From the NCBI GenBank assembly GCA_964408435.1, contig CAYOZL010000002.1, positions 344 through 64,343 of the forward strand: a stretch of 64,000 nt of DNA, written 5' to 3'. Origin of the DNA: an uncultured Bdellovibrionales bacterium. Lineage in GTDB: Bacteria; Bdellovibrionota_C; UBA2361; SZUA-149; CAYOZL01. Shown here piece after piece: positions 6,303-42,497 of the stretch. Position 1 is the stretch's first letter; the number at the start of each line of letters is the position of its first letter. The translations under genes were made by a program, and so were the position numbers. The notes under the pieces are model-generated. The model had not been told where the DNA came from, did not search any database, and saw only the letters and a program-made list of their open reading frames with translations.

Positions 6303-8795
6303 TTAGATCGTATCTAAGACTAGTACCTGTCTAGGTCTTGAGCCATCTGCAGGCCCAACTACACCTTCAGCTTCCATAGTCTCAAGGATTCTAGCAGCCC
6401 TATTATAACCAATTCTAAAGGCTCTTTGCACCATACTAGTCGATGCTTGACCCTTATCTATTACTAGTTGAACTGCTTGTTGGTAGTATTCATCGTATTC
6501 TAAATCTCTAGTAGAGTTGGATTCACTATTATCAAGTTTGTTAATCGTATCCTCAATATTCTTATCATAACAAGGTTCTCCTTGTGATTTTATATGGTCA
6601 ACAACATCTGCAACTTCACTATCAGAGACATACGGTGAATGTAGTCTTAGTGTTCTACCTATTGATGGAGATGAAAAAAGTAAATCCCCTCTTCCTAGTA
6701 ATCTTTCAGCTCCTGATGCATCTAAGATAGTTCTAGAATCAATTTTACTTGTTACTTTAAAAGATATTCTCGCAGGGAAGTTCGCTTTTATTAGGCCAGT
6801 AATTACATTAACGCTTGGTCTTTGGGTTGCTAGAATTAAATGAATACCTGCTGCTCGAGCTTTTTGAGCTAGACGAGTTAATAGTTCTTCTATATCTCTA
6901 CCAACTGTTAACATTAAATCAGCTAATTCATCTACGACTATAACAATTCTTGGCAAGGTTTGATTAATTTCAACATTATCATCAATGCTTACTGCTCTTC
7001 TATCTAATCCGTCTTTAGATGCTATAACGTCTTTTTCTTGTAGTTCAACAACTCCATCTTTATCTTGTTTAGTAATTCTTTGATTAAACATCGCTACATC
7101 TCTAACATTATACTTCTTCATTAAAGAGTATCTTCGTTCCATTTCTTCAACTGCCCACCAAAGAACTGCCTTTGCATGTTTAGGGTTAGTAACAACCGGA
7201 GAGCTTAAATGAGGAATCTCTTCATAAGTACTTAGCTCAAGCATTTTAGGATCAATCATTATTAGTTTTAGAGTCTCTGGGCTGTTTCTATAAAGCAAAC
7301 TTAGAAGCAAGGAGTTAATACAAACTGACTTACCCGTTCCAGTTGCCCCTGCAATTAAAAGATGGGGCATTCTAGCTAAATCAGCGACAAAAGGTCTACC
7401 ATAAGTGTCTTTACCTAAGGCGAGTAATAACGAACTCTCAGAGCTTTTATAGTTATCTGAATCTATTACTTCTCTTAATCTTACAATGTCTCTTTGTTTA
7501 TTTGGCACTTCAATTCCAACGGTGCCCTTTCCAGGTACAGGCGCATAAACTCTAACGCTAGAGACTTTTAAAGCAAGAGCAAGATCGTCTGCAAGGTTAA
7601 TAACTCTTTGAACTTTTATCCCAGGACCAGGAACAAATTCATATAAAGTAACTACAGGTCCAGGGTGCACTTCTACTACTTTTCCAGTAACCTTAAAATT
7701 TTGTAGAGCAACTTCTAAAACCTCACTGTTTTTTATAAGATCTTTGTCTTGCAGGTTGCTAGTAGTGTCAACTTCACTTTTAACTAGAAAATCATATGAA
7801 GGTAGTTTGTAATTTTTAAAATTAAAGTTTGAACTGCTCTTTTTAACTTTTAGTTTAATTTTAGACTTTGTATCAAACTCAGTTCTTTTAATTAGAGGCT
7901 TGTAAGCTTTTAGTTCTTTTGTTGCTCCATCTGTATCAATTGAACTTTTAATAAGACTACTCTTAGTTTGAACTTTTTTTGATTTTGAAGAACTTCTCTT
8001 TGTATGTTCTGTAAGTGAATTATAATCAATAGACCAGTCAGTAGAATCATTATCTAAGTTTTGAGTAGAATTAAGATCGTTTTCGTCCTTATATTTTATT
8101 CCCTTATCGAAGCTAATAAAGCCAAGTATGACAGAGCCAGCAAAGCGTGTAAAAGCAGAGACGTAATCAAAACTCTCTTTTAAAATTGTATTTGAAAATT
8201 TAAGAAACTTTGATGAAAAACCAAAGAAGATTGATGTGCTAATTCTTGTAGCAAAAAGAAAGCTAATTAATGCAGTAAAGAATGAGAATAGTAAAGCTCC
8301 AAACCAGCTTAAATATCCTATTAGCAATGAAGAAAATGTATCACCAATTTGACCACCTGCGTTAGAAATGATTGCAGCAATAGTAGAGCAAGATAAAGAA
8401 AAGAATACGATACCAATTAGTGAGGGTAGTATTTTGGTCTTTGTGTTTTTATGACTATCACTACGATAATTCCAAATACTATAAGCTCCAAGAAAAGCTA
8501 GAAAAGGAATTAAAAAAGAAGGTAAGCCAAAATAGCCCAATAAAGCAGAAGCCACTCCCTCACCTGTAATACCCATGGCATTATCTTTAACATTCTGGTA
8601 GCTGCTTATTAGAGCTACTAATAAAAATATTCCTAAAAAAACAATTGCTAGCGAGTAGGTTTCTTTTAGTAAGTCACCATTAGTTTGGTGAACAGTTTTA
8701 GCACGAGACTTATTACGAGAACTCCTAGCAGCAACTTTTGTCTGCTTACTTTTAATTACACGTAAGTTTTGTTTCTTTTTTCTTTTAGTGGCCAT
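6303..8795 (-). CDS. ftsK: DNA translocase FtsK/SpoIIIE
   Basis: N-terminal TM segments, a linker, a Walker A motif (GATGTGKSV), and the FtsK motor and gamma domains. Confidence 0.95.
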   Translation of the reverse strand: MATKRKKKQNLRVIKSKQTKVAARSSRNKSRAKTVHQTNGDLLKETYSLAIVFLGIFLLVALISSYQNVKDNAMGITGEGVASALLGYFGLPSFLIPFLAFLGAYSIWNYRSDSHKNTKTKILPSLIGIVFFSLSCSTIAAIISNAGGQIGDTFSSLLIGYLSWFGALLFSFFTALISFLFATRISTSIFFGFSSKFLKFSNTILKESFDYVSAFTRFAGSVILGFISFDKGIKYKDENDLNSTQNLDNDSTDWSIDYNSLTEHTKRSSSKSKKVQTKSSLIKSSIDTDGATKELKAYKPLIKRTEFDTKSKIKLKVKKSSSNFNFKNYKLPSYDFLVKSEVDTTSNLQDKDLIKNSEVLEVALQNFKVTGKVVEVHPGPVVTLYEFVPGPGIKVQRVINLADDLALALKVSSVRVYAPVPGKGTVGIEVPNKQRDIVRLREVIDSDNYKSSESSLLLALGKDTYGRPFVADLARMPHLLIAGATGTGKSVCINSLLLSLLYRNSPETLKLIMIDPKMLELSTYEEIPHLSSPVVTNPKHAKAVLWWAVEEMERRYSLMKKYNVRDVAMFNQRITKQDKDGVVELQEKDVIASKDGLDRRAVSIDDNVEINQTLPRIVIVVDELADLMLTVGRDIEELLTRLAQKARAAGIHLILATQRPSVNVITGLIKANFPARISFKVTSKIDSRTILDASGAERLLGRGDLLFSSPSIGRTLRLHSPYVSDSEVADVVDHIKSQGEPCYDKNIEDTINKLDNSESNSTRDLEYDEYYQQAVQLVIDKGQASTSMVQRAFRIGYNRAARILETMEAEGVVGPADGSRPRQVLVLDTI

Positions 8796-37805: not shown

Positions 37806-37848
37806 TGGTGATACTTAGACTTGAACTAAGGACCTCGGAATTATGAGT
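37806..37848. repeat. 43-bp direct repeat (distal att-like copy of the tRNA 3' end)
   Basis: tggtgatacttagacttgaactaaggacctcggaattatgagt is identical to 42234..42276, which is the 3' 43 nt of the tRNA gene. Confidence 0.85.
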
Positions 37849-38104
37849 GGAATCTTTTTGAATTTTGTACACTCTTAATAACTTGTATATACCTAGCAAG
37901 TATTTATACTTCTTGAATTTCTCAATTTAATCAAATCTAAAGGTATTTCTTGGTTTCATAGAGTATTTGAGGGATTTCTTGCCCCCGGCATGCCCCAGAA
38001 TTGGGAAAGTTGCTGGAACAAATAGTGAGGCGTTGTTTGTAATAGGGGAATTTGGTCTTTTAAAGTTAAGTAAATATGCATTGACTGAAAAAACTCTATT
38101 AATT

Positions 38105-39403
38105 TTATTTTCTTAATTTCTTTTTTATACAAGTTGGGCACCATCCACCATTACGAATGCTAATTGGAGATGCTTTCCATTTATGCTTGAATTCACATTG
38201 CCATTCTAGCTTTGTTTTGGTGCCTAAATATTCTTTTGATAAACAGATACCTTTTCTCATTTTTGCAATTTCCTGCATACCCTCAATTGAATATAGTTTT
38301 TCACCAAAGCATATAGGACACCACATTCCTAAAATTACGGCTCTAGGATATGCTTTAAATTTGTGTTGTTTTGAACATGTGAAACTAATTTTACATGTAC
38401 TTAGAACCGCTGTTTTGTGTATGCACTCACCTCTATGTGACTTAGCGATTTTTTTCATCTGTTCAAGCGAGTATTTTCTAAGTTCAATATGTGCACACTT
38501 AGCGCACCAAGCTCCTTCTAGAATATTACTACCTCTAATTTCCCATTGGTGACCTTTAGAGCACTCAAAAAGTAATTTATGGAAATTATTTACATATTTT
38601 TCAGATAAGCATTTTCCTCCTTCTAATTCAGCGATAGTTTTGAAGTTTTCTATCGATAAGGATCTAGTTGGATTGCAAGATGGACACCATGAACCTTTTT
38701 TTATGTTAGCTGGCGTAGAAAGCCATTTGTGCCCAAGTTCACATTCCCACTCTAAGTGTGTTACAGCATTAAGATAGTTATTAGAAAGACATCTACCACC
38801 TTTAGATTTAGCAATTTCTTGCATTTCTTCTATGGTTAAAGGTCTTGAATTGGAACATAAGTAACACCAGGAACCGCTCTTTACTGAACCTGGATTGGCG
38901 TACCATCGATGTCCATTTGAACATTCCCACTCTAGCTTAGTATTGGCATTTTTATATACGGTAGAAAGACATCTACCACCTTTAGATTCAGCAATTTCTT
39001 GCATTTCTTCTATGCCTAAAGGTCTTGCACTGGAACATAAGCGACACCAACTTCCTTTTTTTACTGAATGAGCAGTGGCAAACCATTGATGTCCTTTTGA
39101 ACATTCCCACTTTAGCTTAAGATTGACATTTTTATATACTTTAGAAAGACATTTGCCTCCTCTGGATTTAGCAATTTCTTGCATTTTTTCTAATGACAAA
39201 GGTCTTGCTCGAGAACAAAGAAGGCACCATCTTCCTCTCTCTACTTGTGGTGGAAGAGCATGCCATCGATGTCCTTTGCTGCACTCCCATTCTAATTTAG
39301 TTGAAGTATTTATATATTCTTTTGAGATGCATTTCCCACCTCTGGATTCCGCAATTTTTTGCATGTCCTCGATTTTGAGTTTGCGATATTTGCGTTTAGC
39401 CAT
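38105..39403 (-). CDS. multi-zinc-ribbon repeat protein (7 tandem 60-aa C-C-H-C-C modules), paralogue A
   Basis: Repeats follow the pattern IEEMQEIAxSxGGKCLSxxYxNxxTKLEWECSxGHxWxAxPxxVxxGxWCxxC. The likely true start is the ATG at 39401-39403 (MAKRKYRKL), preceded by GAGG. The ORF track used an upstream TTG. Confidence 0.7.
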   Translation of the reverse strand: MAKRKYRKLKIEDMQKIAESRGGKCISKEYINTSTKLEWECSKGHRWHALPPQVERGRWCLLCSRARPLSLEKMQEIAKSRGGKCLSKVYKNVNLKLKWECSKGHQWFATAHSVKKGSWCRLCSSARPLGIEEMQEIAESKGGRCLSTVYKNANTKLEWECSNGHRWYANPGSVKSGSWCYLCSNSRPLTIEEMQEIAKSKGGRCLSNNYLNAVTHLEWECELGHKWLSTPANIKKGSWCPSCNPTRSLSIENFKTIAELEGGKCLSEKYVNNFHKLLFECSKGHQWEIRGSNILEGAWCAKCAHIELRKYSLEQMKKIAKSHRGECIHKTAVLSTCKISFTCSKQHKFKAYPRAVILGMWCPICFGEKLYSIEGMQEIAKMRKGICLSKEYLGTKTKLEWQCEFKHKWKASPISIRNGGWCPTCIKKKLRK

Positions 39404-39650
39404 ATCAAACCTCAATTAAAACATTAAATCAGTCAAAGCATAAACATTAATCCTAATGTTTATGCTCGTGAAAATTAAATTCTACCCGATAAATTTCAGT
39501 ATTTGTAAGTAGTATGAAAAGAACTTCTAATAGCTTAATATATCACAGTGTTTTGGCAAAAACTAGACGTGAATAAGTTAAGATTGTTATTAATAAGATT
39601 TTTTAAAATTTAAGGAGGCTTGCCAAATATTTAATAACCTTTAAAGTTTT

Positions 39651-40706
39651 TTATAAATCTTGTTCTTTCCCTTGGTAGAGTTTTCGTAGGGAATCTAAGT
39701 TTAATTTGCTATCTGTTGGTAACTCATTAAACGCTCTAACAGCTTGTTCTCGAACAGTTTTATCAGGGCAATTAAAAACAGACATAAGCACGGGTGCTAA
39801 TATGGCAGTTGCTCTGCTGACACTTCTATCTAGTTCAAGACCAAGCTCTACCCCGCCATTTGAGAAGGCTTCGATTAGATCGGTAATTGTTTTGAAACTA
39901 AGAGTAGTGTCTTCAAAATCAACTTCTTCTAGCTCTTGATCTATTAAGTTTAGAATGCCATCAAATGCAAAACCGATTACTTCAATTGCAGAGAGCTCTT
40001 TAGTTGAGGTAAGGAAAAGTTTTTTTCCTCTTCCAGCTGGTGCTGACCAACGTTCTAGCCTAGTACTGTTACTCCGTGTTCTTTTTATTTTTCCAAGTGA
40101 TTTTCTAAGTGCTGCTCCAAGCTCGTGAGCAGTAAGATTCTTTTCAATGACCTCACTTGCATATCTTTCCATTTCCTTCTCAGTTGGAAATTGAGCAATC
40201 CTATAGGCCATCGTCAACGGAATTTTACTTTCATCAATAAGGTGAAGTATATTTTTGGGTAGTTTCAATAAACGAACAGTTTTCTTTATTAAATCGATAC
40301 TGTAGGTTGGTAAACTTTCGTGAAGTTGTCTTGCTCCCCAACCTTTTTCAGTCATTACAGCCTGAAAGGATTCTGCACGTTCTGAGGCTAGAAGATCTTT
40401 CTTAGCGCCGTCTTCAACAAGCTGATCCATGATAATATCCACTCTACTCATGGTTACATCACTGACAATGCTTGGAGCTTTTTCCCAGCCAAGATGCTTC
40501 ATCGCTCTTAGTCTTATTTCGCCAGAGATTAAAATGAATCTGTCTCCATTTGGTCTGACTTTAATTCTTCTTTTCAGGTCGTTTTTTTCAATACTTCTTG
40601 CTCTTTTTTCAATGTCTTTCTCTGTGATGGTTTTTCGAGGTTGATTTGGATCGAAATCAATCAAAGCTATATCAATATCCATCATTTGATCTGGTTTTTT
40701 GGCCAC
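39651..40706 (-). CDS. ParB/Srx-like nuclease-domain protein with HTH (orphan, no ParA)
   Basis: IDIALIDFDPNQPRK...IKVRPNGDRFILISGEIRLRAMKHLG matches the ParB N-terminal box including GxxRxxA. An HTH follows, and the C-terminal region is helical. Confidence 0.7.
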   Translation of the reverse strand: MAKKPDQMMDIDIALIDFDPNQPRKTITEKDIEKRARSIEKNDLKRRIKVRPNGDRFILISGEIRLRAMKHLGWEKAPSIVSDVTMSRVDIIMDQLVEDGAKKDLLASERAESFQAVMTEKGWGARQLHESLPTYSIDLIKKTVRLLKLPKNILHLIDESKIPLTMAYRIAQFPTEKEMERYASEVIEKNLTAHELGAALRKSLGKIKRTRSNSTRLERWSAPAGRGKKLFLTSTKELSAIEVIGFAFDGILNLIDQELEEVDFEDTTLSFKTITDLIEAFSNGGVELGLELDRSVSRATAILAPVLMSVFNCPDKTVREQAVRAFNELPTDSKLNLDSLRKLYQGKEQDL

Positions 40707-41067
40707 GGTAAATCCCTTATAAAAACGCTATTGAGATTGTTAGTTATTTGGCAATAAATCGCCCCAAATAATTATAATAATTATCTAAGACAACTTATTA
40801 GTTTTATGGCTGATATTTAAATTATAAAGAACGAATAGATTGAGTTATATTTTCATAGAGTAGATTTTACTATAAAATAGTGATAAATTGCAAATCAGCT
40901 GAAATAATACCTAGAATTACTTATAAGTCGTTAAAATATAAGATTTAGAAATTATAACAGTAAGTTCTTTTATAATTATATAATTGTAGAACCTTATTTA
41001 ATGCGTGAAAAGAGATTTGAATTACTTTTCACGCTTTGACTGGTTATTGTTTTTTTTGAGGTTTGTC

Positions 41068-42174
41068 ATGGCAAGACTTAGATATACGATTAAGGATATG
41101 CAAAAAATTGCTACATCAAGAGGTGGTAAATGCTTATCAGATAGCTACGCAGGTCTAAAAACCAAACTTGAGTGGCAATGCGCAGATGGGCATCGTTGGA
41201 ATTCTACACCTCATAGCATTATTTATACTAAGTCATGGTGTTTAGCTTGTGCAGGAGTTAAGCCACTAACATTAGACGAGATGCAAAAGATTGCTAAATC
41301 TAGAGGTGGTAAGTGCTTATCTAAGGAGTATTTTAACAATAGAACTAAACTCGAATGGCAATGCGCAAATGGACATCGCTGGTTTGCTGCTCCTAAAGAT
41401 GTAAAAAAGGGAACATGGTGTTTTTATTGTTCCAGCACTAAATTAACAATTGAAGAAATGCAAGAAATTGCTAAATCAAGAGGTGGTAAGTGTTTGTCTA
41501 GAGATTACTTAGGAATTTTTACTAAACTAGAATGGGAATGCGCAAAAAAGCATCGTTGGCAAGCCCAACCTAATGACATTAGAAAGGGAGGATGGTGTCC
41601 TTATTGTAGTGGAAGACTATCTAGGACAATCGAAGAGTTTCAACTAATTGCTGAACTCGAAGGTGGCAAGTGCTTATCTACGGAATATGTAAAAGATTTG
41701 ATTCCTCTACGCTTTAGATGCTCGGAAGGTCATGAATGGGAAGCAATAGGAAGTAATATAAAAAAGGGAACATGGTGTCCTGTATGCTCTAATCGAAAGT
41801 ACTCAATTAGGGAGATGCAAGAGATAGCGGAGTCTCAAAACGGTAAGTGCTTGTCTAAAGGCGTCATTACTAGAAAAACAAGAGTGGAATTTCAGTGTAA
41901 GGAAAAACATGTTTTTAGAGCACTTCCTAGAGCTATTGAGTTCGGTATGTGGTGTCCTAAATGTTTTGGAGACAAGCTGTATACCATTGAAGGAATGAAA
42001 GAAATTGCAAAAATGAGAGGTGGAGACTGTTTATCTAAGGAATATTTAGGTGTTACGAAAAAGCTTAAATGGACTTGTGAATTTTCCCATACTTGGACTG
42101 CACTCCCTAATCCTATTAGAGATGGAGGATGGTGTCCTGTTTGTTTTGAGATTGCAAGAAAGAAACAGATTTAA
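41068..42174 (+). CDS. multi-zinc-ribbon repeat protein (6 tandem 60-aa modules), paralogue B
   Basis: It has the same repeat architecture as paralogue A and a homologous C-terminus (GGWCPxC). The preferred start is ATG 41068 (MARLRYTIKDMQKIA), preceded by GAGG. The GTG at 41005 used by the ORF track is less likely. Confidence 0.7.
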   Translation: MARLRYTIKDMQKIATSRGGKCLSDSYAGLKTKLEWQCADGHRWNSTPHSIIYTKSWCLACAGVKPLTLDEMQKIAKSRGGKCLSKEYFNNRTKLEWQCANGHRWFAAPKDVKKGTWCFYCSSTKLTIEEMQEIAKSRGGKCLSRDYLGIFTKLEWECAKKHRWQAQPNDIRKGGWCPYCSGRLSRTIEEFQLIAELEGGKCLSTEYVKDLIPLRFRCSEGHEWEAIGSNIKKGTWCPVCSNRKYSIREMQEIAESQNGKCLSKGVITRKTRVEFQCKEKHVFRALPRAIEFGMWCPKCFGDKLYTIEGMKEIAKMRGGDCLSKEYLGVTKKLKWTCEFSHTWTALPNPIRDGGWCPVCFEIARKKQI

Positions 42175-42233
42175 AAAAGGTTTGTCAGTCAAAGTAATTA
42201 CATAATTACTCAATTAAATCGATAAGCAAAAAA

Positions 42234-42307
42234 TGGTGATACTTAGACTTGAACTAAGGACCTCGGAATTATGAGTTCCGCGCTCTAACCAGCTGAGCTA
42301 TATCACC
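42234..42307 (-). tRNA. tRNA with CAU anticodon (elongator Met, or Ile2-lysidine type)
   Basis: The minus-strand sequence GGTGATATAGCTCAGCTGGTTAGAGCGCGGAACTCATAATTCCGAGGTCCTTAGTTCAAGTCTAAGTATCACCA folds into a cloverleaf. The acceptor stem is 7 bp, the anticodon stem-loop is CGGAA/CTCATAA/TTCCG, and the T-loop is TTCAAGT. The G1:C72 pair argues against an initiator. Confidence 0.85.
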
Positions 42308-42467
42308 CTAGGATTTGCTTTGTTTTTGAGGTGAGAATCTACTTATTCTTTCCAATTTTAGCAATACTAATAGCATTAAATACATATAAATAAGCTTGTA
42401 TTATATATCTTGAGTCAAGAGTAAGTAGGTATGATTTGTTTGTTTTTCAGGTTTTTGAAGCTAATAA

Positions 42468-42497
42468 TAAAAAAAAAGAGATTAAGTATCTCTTTTT
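42468..42497 (-). terminator. rho-independent terminator (bidirectional hairpin) downstream of the phosphatase gene
   Basis: Stem AAGAGAT/ATCTCTT with loop TAAGT. On the minus strand the hairpin is followed by T9; on the plus strand it is followed by TTTTATTTT. Confidence 0.5.

Follow-up and report, generated by a model that had tools for sequence, protein, structure and literature searches.

Two paralogous zinc-finger genes in an uncultured marine Bdellovibrionota are each preceded by a perfect hairpin and by a conserved stretch that runs into the start codon, which raises the question of what these paired leaders do and whether they act as RNA or as DNA. Here, we analysed the window, which is the whole 64-kb stretch of DNA carrying both genes. 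The LepA of this host is ~74% identical to that of Bdellovibrionota and Bdellovibrionales MAGs, and the same strain is present in JGI metagenome 3300000976 and in run SRR2835677. Paralogue A (P0164; 432 aa, seven DUF4379/CapR zinc-finger repeats) is encoded on the minus strand at 38105..39403 with its ATG at 39403, and paralogue B (P0121; 368 aa, six DUF4379/CapR zinc-finger repeats) on the plus strand at 41068..42174 with its ATG at 41068; the public gene calls agree with both start codons. Both proteins are built solely of 60-aa zinc-finger repeats (MQEIAKSRGGKCLS...LEWEC..GH.W......GSWCP.C) and match the non-catalytic part of the phage 'HNH endonuclease' PHROGs 559 and 681, and PADLOC gave no match for either of them. 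The internal repeats share up to 84-86% DNA identity, which suggests, at the level of sequence, concerted evolution within each gene. Between the two leaders lies a ParB-like gene (ParB_N + HTH_ParB; 39651..40706, minus strand) that is divergent from B. In its product GEIR replaces GERR, and the 150-aa C-terminal part has no family match. A search of 5.8 billion proteins found no close relative of the ParB-like protein (the next best was 35% identical over 53% of the length), and for that reason it was rejected as an anchor for related islands.

Upstream of A, the sequence-only reading had described a 12-bp inverted repeat with a 4-nt loop at 39438..39465, and this repeat was found as described (GCATAAACATTA-GGAT-TAATGTTTATGC, 39465..39438 on the minus strand). 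One further A-T pair turns it into the perfect 13-bp stem of hairpin A (39437..39466, minus strand; arms at 39437-39449 and 39454-39466), with a 4-nt GGAU loop and 4 G-C pairs among the 13 bp, and in RNA form G.U and UCA/UGA pairs lengthen the stem to 39471..39432. The GC of GCTTTGACTG (39430..39439, minus strand), an element that also contains a -35-like TTGACT, closes the stem. It is followed by the 14-nt T-rich spacer ATTTAATGTTTTAA (39416..39429, minus strand), which repeats part of the 3′ arm in TAATGTTT, and then by TTGAGGTTTG (39406..39415, minus strand), AT and the ATG (39403..39401). For B, the perfect 10-bp stem had been read correctly, but the loop is 12 nt long instead of 13 and the hairpin ends at 41034 instead of 41035. 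Hairpin B thus occupies 41003..41034 on the plus strand, with GCGTGAAAAG (41003-41012) and CTTTTCACGC (41025-41034) as its arms and 5 G-C pairs in its stem; 3 inner pairs are possible in the loop, leaving 4 nt, and in RNA form UUAA/UUGA pairs lengthen the stem to 40998..41039. Leader B continues with a copy of GCTTTGACTG that is 100% identical to that of A (41033..41042, plus strand), a 13-nt spacer, TTGAGGTTTG (41056..41065, plus strand), TC and the ATG at 41068. The order of hairpin, GCTTTGACTG and TTGAGGTTTG-ATG was therefore the same at both genes, as had been proposed. TTGAGGTTTG had been taken as a separate motif, and it is most simply a probable Shine-Dalgarno region, with GAGGT 6 nt before the ATG (GAGG at 39413..39410 in A and at 41058-41061 in B).

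Several comparisons set these leaders apart from chance. When the 64-kb window was scanned for perfect hairpins (stem ≥10 bp, loop 3-14 nt), 9 were present, whereas shuffles that preserve composition had 1.7 on average; two of the nine are those located 33-34 nt upstream of the start codons of the two paralogues. GCTTTGACTG and TTGAGGTTTG have exactly two occurrences each in the 64 kb, solely at the two leaders. Local alignment of the upstream regions of A and B, which had been suggested as a check, scored 47, whereas shuffles scored 22.9 ± 2.8 and 0 of 500 equalled the real value. Upstream of the hairpins the alignment score was 22 against a shuffle mean of 22.8, showing that the similarity starts exactly at the hairpin. 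Folding, the other suggested check, gave stable hairpins as RNA, with energies of -15.7 kcal/mol for A and -15.1 kcal/mol for B (z = -6.5 and -6.0), and a pairing probability of 1.0 for the 5′ arm indicated a strong and dominant predicted fold.

To what extent these features are held by selection can be judged from the divergence of the genes behind them. A and B share 55% amino-acid identity and 62% nucleotide identity over aligned codons. Their NG86 dS is 2.16, with neutral sites saturated, and identity at four-fold degenerate sites is 39%, near random for a 33% G+C genome; by these sequence measures, the two genes are old duplicates. From the closing GC of the stem up to the ATG (36/35 nt), 29 of 36 positions are nonetheless identical (81%), and the distance from the stem base to the ATG is kept at 34 nt in A and 33 nt in B. 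Aligned from the base, the stems agree at 6 pairs, while the other 4 have changed on both sides and every pair remains intact; this count over 10 pairs comes from only two sequences, paralogues in one genome, in which events cannot be counted. The two-sided changes are at pairs 3, 5, 8 and 10 (A-T to G-C twice, C-G to A-T, and T-A to G-C). Pairs were counted in Python on a hand-anchored alignment; RNAalifold on a MAFFT alignment missed the hairpin, with its unequal loop lengths and misaligned 5′ arms. It has been reported that a single event of template switching between inverted-repeat arms can generate two-sided changes (PMC8794818). What makes selection on pairing visible here is a pair of paralogues within one genome whose neutral sites are saturated with change. 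Given that pairing is kept, that the stem sequence is free and that the single-stranded part is constrained in sequence, the element behaves like a folded strand and not like a common protein-binding duplex. The leader 3′ of the stem is under purifying selection, as far as two paralogous sequences can tell. Taken together, these results uphold the general proposal of a functional nucleic-acid structure in which the stems differ while the architecture and the flanking motifs are kept.

The best explanation is that the two elements are homologous 5′ untranslated leaders of A and B. We tentatively favour a model in which an RNA stem-loop within the 5′ UTR protects or insulates the mRNA and is followed by a U-rich ribosome-binding region that stays open; the action at the RNA level, the start sites and the stabilising role are what we infer from the arrangement. 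In this model, a stem-loop of about -15 kcal/mol, selected for pairing and free in sequence, would be followed by a conserved U-rich stretch of 33-34 nt in which UUUGACUG is succeeded by a U-rich tract and then, 6 nt from the AUG, by the Shine-Dalgarno GAGGU. With a promoter in the non-conserved AT-rich DNA just upstream, the mRNA would begin at the hairpin or close to it. In this position the hairpin would shield the transcript from 5′-end-dependent decay by RNase E or RppH, and it would insulate the ribosome-binding region, which would stay outside the stem-loop, from anything transcribed upstream. The pattern of four two-sided changes and no broken pair in ten, with the sequence free, is that required of the pairing in an ompA-type stabiliser. 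Moreover, the zinc-finger genes are the sole thing common to both hairpins, and there is no co-directional gene upstream of B.

According to PMC2948425, which summarises Bouvet & Belasco (1992) and Emory et al. (1992), a hairpin is stabilising only if at most 2-4 nt remain unpaired before it at the 5′ end. By inspection, a candidate promoter for A, TTACAA-18 nt-TAGAAT (39479..39508, minus strand; below the threshold of the promoter scan), would start transcription at ~39472, the base of the extended hairpin A. Candidate -10 boxes for B, likewise picked by inspection, are TATAAT at 40971-76 and 40979-84 and TAGAAC at 40987-92 (plus strand), 5-20 nt upstream of the extended hairpin B. Of these, TAGAAT in A and the boxes at 40979-84 and 40987-92 in B precede the extended stems by 5-14 nt, and transcription from them would leave the hairpin at the very start of the mRNA, as ompA-type stabilisers need. 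These -10-like boxes carry no statistical weight, since in AT-rich DNA such hexamers were no commoner than in shuffles (17 promoter-like hexamers found in the upstream DNA against 16.2 expected). Other promoter-like sites, TTGGCA-16/17 nt-AAnnAT at 39626..39598 and 40748..40775, would give a long UTR with the hairpins 125-220 nt into it. The invariance of GCUUUGACUG also goes unexplained if the element is purely a stabiliser, and the invariant UUUGACUG block may be recognised by a protein, an sRNA or an RNase.

We then considered the ribosome-binding region itself. GAGG begins 21-23 nt 3′ of the stem and lies outside it in both the MFE and the centroid structures, so that neither leader has its Shine-Dalgarno in the stem, as an RBS-sequestering hairpin of the I-TevI or mobE type would. 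When the leader was folded together with the first 40 coding nt, the unpaired probability of the Shine-Dalgarno was only 0.34 in both leaders, through weak downstream pairings. The predicted partners in the early coding sequence are non-homologous in A and B, and we give this pairing little weight. The Shine-Dalgarno also distinguishes the two genes from their surroundings: the upstream regions of host genes in the window (~33) are mostly A-rich and lack a Shine-Dalgarno; the leaders of A and B are T-rich and contain GAGGT, a difference that fits a foreign origin. A search of Rfam returned no match for the leaders even at E <= 1, and none at the gathering threshold across the window. Overall, the leader is a real, selected cis-element of an ordinary kind, namely a structured 5′ leader absent from Rfam.

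Among the functions proposed earlier were an insulating terminator and an attenuator, and both have lost ground. As a leaky intrinsic terminator or attenuator, each hairpin would stop part of the upstream transcripts, coming from parB for A and from a distal promoter for B, and the read-through would set the expression of the zinc-finger gene, possibly tuned by a factor on the hairpin or on UUUGACUG. We consider this unlikely, even though both stems close with two G-C pairs and have UUU directly after them, hairpin A is the first stable hairpin after the parB stop (186 nt on), and the distal promoter-like sites would place both hairpins within long leaders. The T-tract is poor, with 3 T right after the stem and 4 T among the 8 positions of TTTGACTG, where at least 5 of 8 would be expected of a terminator, and a terminator scan called neither hairpin. 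On a score of the d'Aubenton-Carafa type, the two leaders reached -36 and -29 compared with +13.6 for the host terminator at 1458-1479, and their tail scores were 2.0 and 2.7 compared with 4.5-5.1 for host terminators, which carry runs of 4-5 T. The reference terminators used here, at 42473-42497 and 1454-1483, are typical bidirectional host terminators consisting of an A-run, a stem and a T-run. In addition, the loop of B has 12 nt, and a co-directional unit is present upstream of A (parB) but not upstream of B, whose neighbour is divergent. With regard to attenuation, the 5′ arm of A can pair instead with the second TAATGTTT copy at 39426..39419, but this alternative is far weaker (whole-leader energies of -14.5 against -28.9 kcal/mol) and shows no clear conservation in B. 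Blocking the 3′ arm left only weak and non-homologous structures, so a conserved alternative pairing did not emerge, and none of the Rfam riboswitch or leader families matched.

A protein-binding DNA palindrome had also been proposed, and this option is weakened by the way in which the arms differ. The palindromes would in that case be duplex-DNA operators for a dimeric regulator, beside a promoter with the invariant TTGACT as its -35; by analogy with KorB, the regulator could be the ParB-like protein encoded between them. TTGACT does differ from TTGACA by a single base in six, each palindrome directly adjoins this hexamer, with the ParB-like gene lying between the two, and on inspection the arms of B resemble the half-sites of the parS consensus (CGTGAAA / TTTCACG) in everted order. 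We nevertheless regard the operator as improbable: TTGACT has no acceptable -10 at 16-18 nt, as GAGGTT is all that is available there and would start transcription within the ATG, just 6 of 10 arm positions agree (60%), and the outer ends are 28 bp apart in one palindrome and 32 bp in the other, which means a different helical phase for a dimer. Changes that preserve pairing and not sequence are, moreover, the signature of a folded strand.

We attach little probability to the idea that the palindromes have no function at all and mark where an ancient inverted duplication ends on its inner side, their arms being kept perfect by template switching, with the ribosome-binding region as the only selected part. 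It would account for the similarity of the two loci stopping exactly at the hairpins, and template switching can make and maintain perfect hairpins and yield apparent compensatory changes (PMC8794818), which matters in a comparison of only two sequences. At a dS >2, however, both hairpins should not have stayed perfect over 10-13 bp at an equal distance from the ATG. Such perfect hairpins are rare in the window (9 observed against 1.7 expected), and the closing GC pairs and the flanking block are invariant.

Since the remaining explanations concern the surrounding DNA, we describe the locus as a whole. A tRNA-Met gene (CAT; 42234..42307, minus strand) forms one boundary of an island, and an exact 43-nt copy of its 3′ half (37806..37848, minus strand; matching 42234-42276) forms the other. 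The copies are 4,428 bp apart and enclose a 4.4-kb island with the exact direct repeat at both ends that characterises a tRNA-integrated island. Between the repeats we found only A, the ParB-like gene and B, and no integrase. Both this island and the exact start of the leader similarity at the hairpin had escaped the sequence-only reading. Relatives keep the order lepA-lepB-lipB-metallophosphatase-tRNA-Met and have other genes after the tRNA (contigs L108 and L109), and this differing cargo marks the tRNA-Met as an insertion hot spot; the contig of the closest relative (L102) ends at lepA and offers no empty-site comparison. On L109, a convergent gene with a GIY-YIG domain (6337-7212, minus strand) occupies the place of B beside the tRNA-Met and has no similar leader. 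Relative to JGI contig L001, which is otherwise 99.97-100% identical, the window shows an ~80-nt indel at ~42394-42466, in the spacer that separates the tRNA-Met from the metallophosphatase gene, and the junction shows an 8-nt overlap.

Further repeats were noted within the island. Repeat searches found an inverted copy past the stop of B, consisting of the small palindrome GTAATTATGTAATTAC and then TTTGACTGA (42185..42210, minus strand), and another past the stop of A, TATGCATTGACTGA (38074..38087, plus strand), which matches TATGCTTTGACTGA of leader A at 13 of 14 positions. The ParB-like gene is flanked by a 10-bp perfect inverted repeat, TTGCCAAATA / TATTTGGCAA (39620-39629 and 40745-40754), which sits in 33-nt arms that are 73% complementary, a similarity not significant against shuffles. 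Each 33-nt arm holds a TTGGCA -35-like hexamer facing the neighbouring paralogue, and JGI contig L001 begins at 40743, within the right arm. Independent contigs (L110 and L002) cross all these repeats, in the reference orientation only.

It is very unlikely, in our estimation, that the hairpin-plus-TTTGACTG units are structure-plus-sequence recognition sites for the zinc-finger-repeat proteins or the ParB-like protein of the island. Units of this kind precede both paralogues, and a weaker inverted copy comes after each stop codon. If they were such recognition sites, the three-gene, integrase-less tRNA-Met island would be an undescribed self-regulating or self-mobilising module, and the paired 5′/3′ sites would close each mRNA into a panhandle or mark the gene as a DNA cassette. 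We give hardly any credence to DNA-level mobility or rearrangement, in which hairpin-plus-TTTGACTG would bracket each zinc-finger gene in an inverted, cassette-end-like manner, or the 34-bp inverted leaders would flip the ParB segment and switch the paralogue downstream of parB: the locus is a mobile island, inverted CTTTGACTG copies lie 11-17 nt past each stop and resemble the 3′ arm of their own gene (TATGC.. in A, AATTAC.. in B), and the motif is enriched in the island, whose 4.4 kb contain 5 of the 7 hits at up to one mismatch, but the inverted copies are of marginal significance at A (p ~0.03-0.06) and of none at B, the island has no transposase, integrase, recombinase or HUH enzyme, the independent contigs show the reference orientation only (L110 at 37819-39996, L002 at 40047-42263), and there are no further copies in the window or in public collections.

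We also searched for related leaders elsewhere. The pattern GCTTTGACTG-N8-25-TTGAGGTTTG had 16 matches in 596 Gb of genome contigs, all in unrelated coding or intergenic DNA and none before a zinc-finger gene, and we estimate that about this number is expected by chance. The pattern scan of a metagenome collection gave one chance match, in a locus of the zapA-ygfA type, and that of a viral collection (IMG/VR) gave 82 matches, none of them in the right context. Blastn of both leaders against phages and plasmids gave no match, the upstream regions of homologues (L103 and L104) and of viral relatives (L105-L107) contained no comparable leader, and the literature on DUF4379/CapR yielded nothing useful. 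The leader element appears to be private to this gene pair.

A number of known elements were compared with the leaders and rejected. REP or MITE-like dispersed palindromes do not fit, as only two hairpin-plus-GCTTTGACTG copies exist in the 64 kb and the collections gave chance matches. The GGA in the loop of A, as in a CsrA site, is missing from B, and the RYYYAAC/GTTRRRY of an integron attC is not present. For boxB-boxA antitermination, where boxA is GCUCUUUAAC, GCUUUGAC fits boxA only with a 2-nt deletion, and the window holds no rRNA operon for comparison. The spacing fits a Bacteroidetes-type promoter (TTTG-N19/20-TAnnTTTG), but the host is a Bdellovibrionota and the start would be inside the ATG. 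A leaderless transcript from TTGACT-N16/17-GAGGTT would have too poor a -10. The duplex energies of a 5′-3′ mRNA panhandle were not clearly better than those of shuffles, and inversion of the ParB segment had no contig support.

The interest of the 5′ UTR stem-loop is that the leader pair forms a clean natural case of selection on pairing over sequence in a bacterial mRNA leader, and a defined object for studying mRNA stability or translation control in Bdellovibrionota, in which, to our knowledge, almost nothing is known about untranslated regions. The leader is not common to other organisms and opens no long-standing question. It does point to a small tRNA-Met island with a ParB-like gene and two zinc-finger-repeat genes, and this island is more unusual than the leader itself.

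The leaders share single features with several known systems. Like the operators of ParB and KorB (parS, OB), the palindromes flank a ParB-family gene and abut a -35-like hexamer, but the two palindromes are unlike each other in sequence and half-site distance and have no usable -10. Like Rho-independent terminators and attenuators, the hairpins have a G-C-closed stem with U directly after it, and hairpin A is downstream of parB; here, however, AT-rich stems are followed by a U-tract that is short and broken up, the loop of B has 12 nt, no gene lies upstream of B on its strand, and no conserved antiterminator was found. The hairpins of phage homing-endonuclease genes (I-TevI, mobE, segB and seg43(25)) are also stable hairpins just upstream of a gene, and the products of A and B are related to DNA-binding modules of phage HNH endonucleases (PHROGs 559 and 681). 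In I-TevI, mobE and segB the RBS is inside the hairpin, whereas here the Shine-Dalgarno starts 3′ of the stem; the hairpin of seg43(25) from Aeromonas phage 25 is, as here, upstream of the RBS and does not sequester it (PMC2988022). A and B differ from these phage genes in that no nuclease domain was detected in their products and no late promoter is evident in the hairpin. Stem-loops of the type found in the ompA 5′ UTR of E. coli, or added to RNA I, protect against 5′-end-dependent decay by RNase E, as summarised in PMC2948425. Compared with ompA and RNA I, the leaders of A and B have an invariant UUUGACUG after the stem that has no counterpart in ompA, their host is a Bdellovibrionota, and their position at the 5′ end is putative. 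What they share with ompA and RNA I is a stable hairpin upstream of an unpaired, RBS-bearing leader, in which the structure matters and the sequence of the stem does not.
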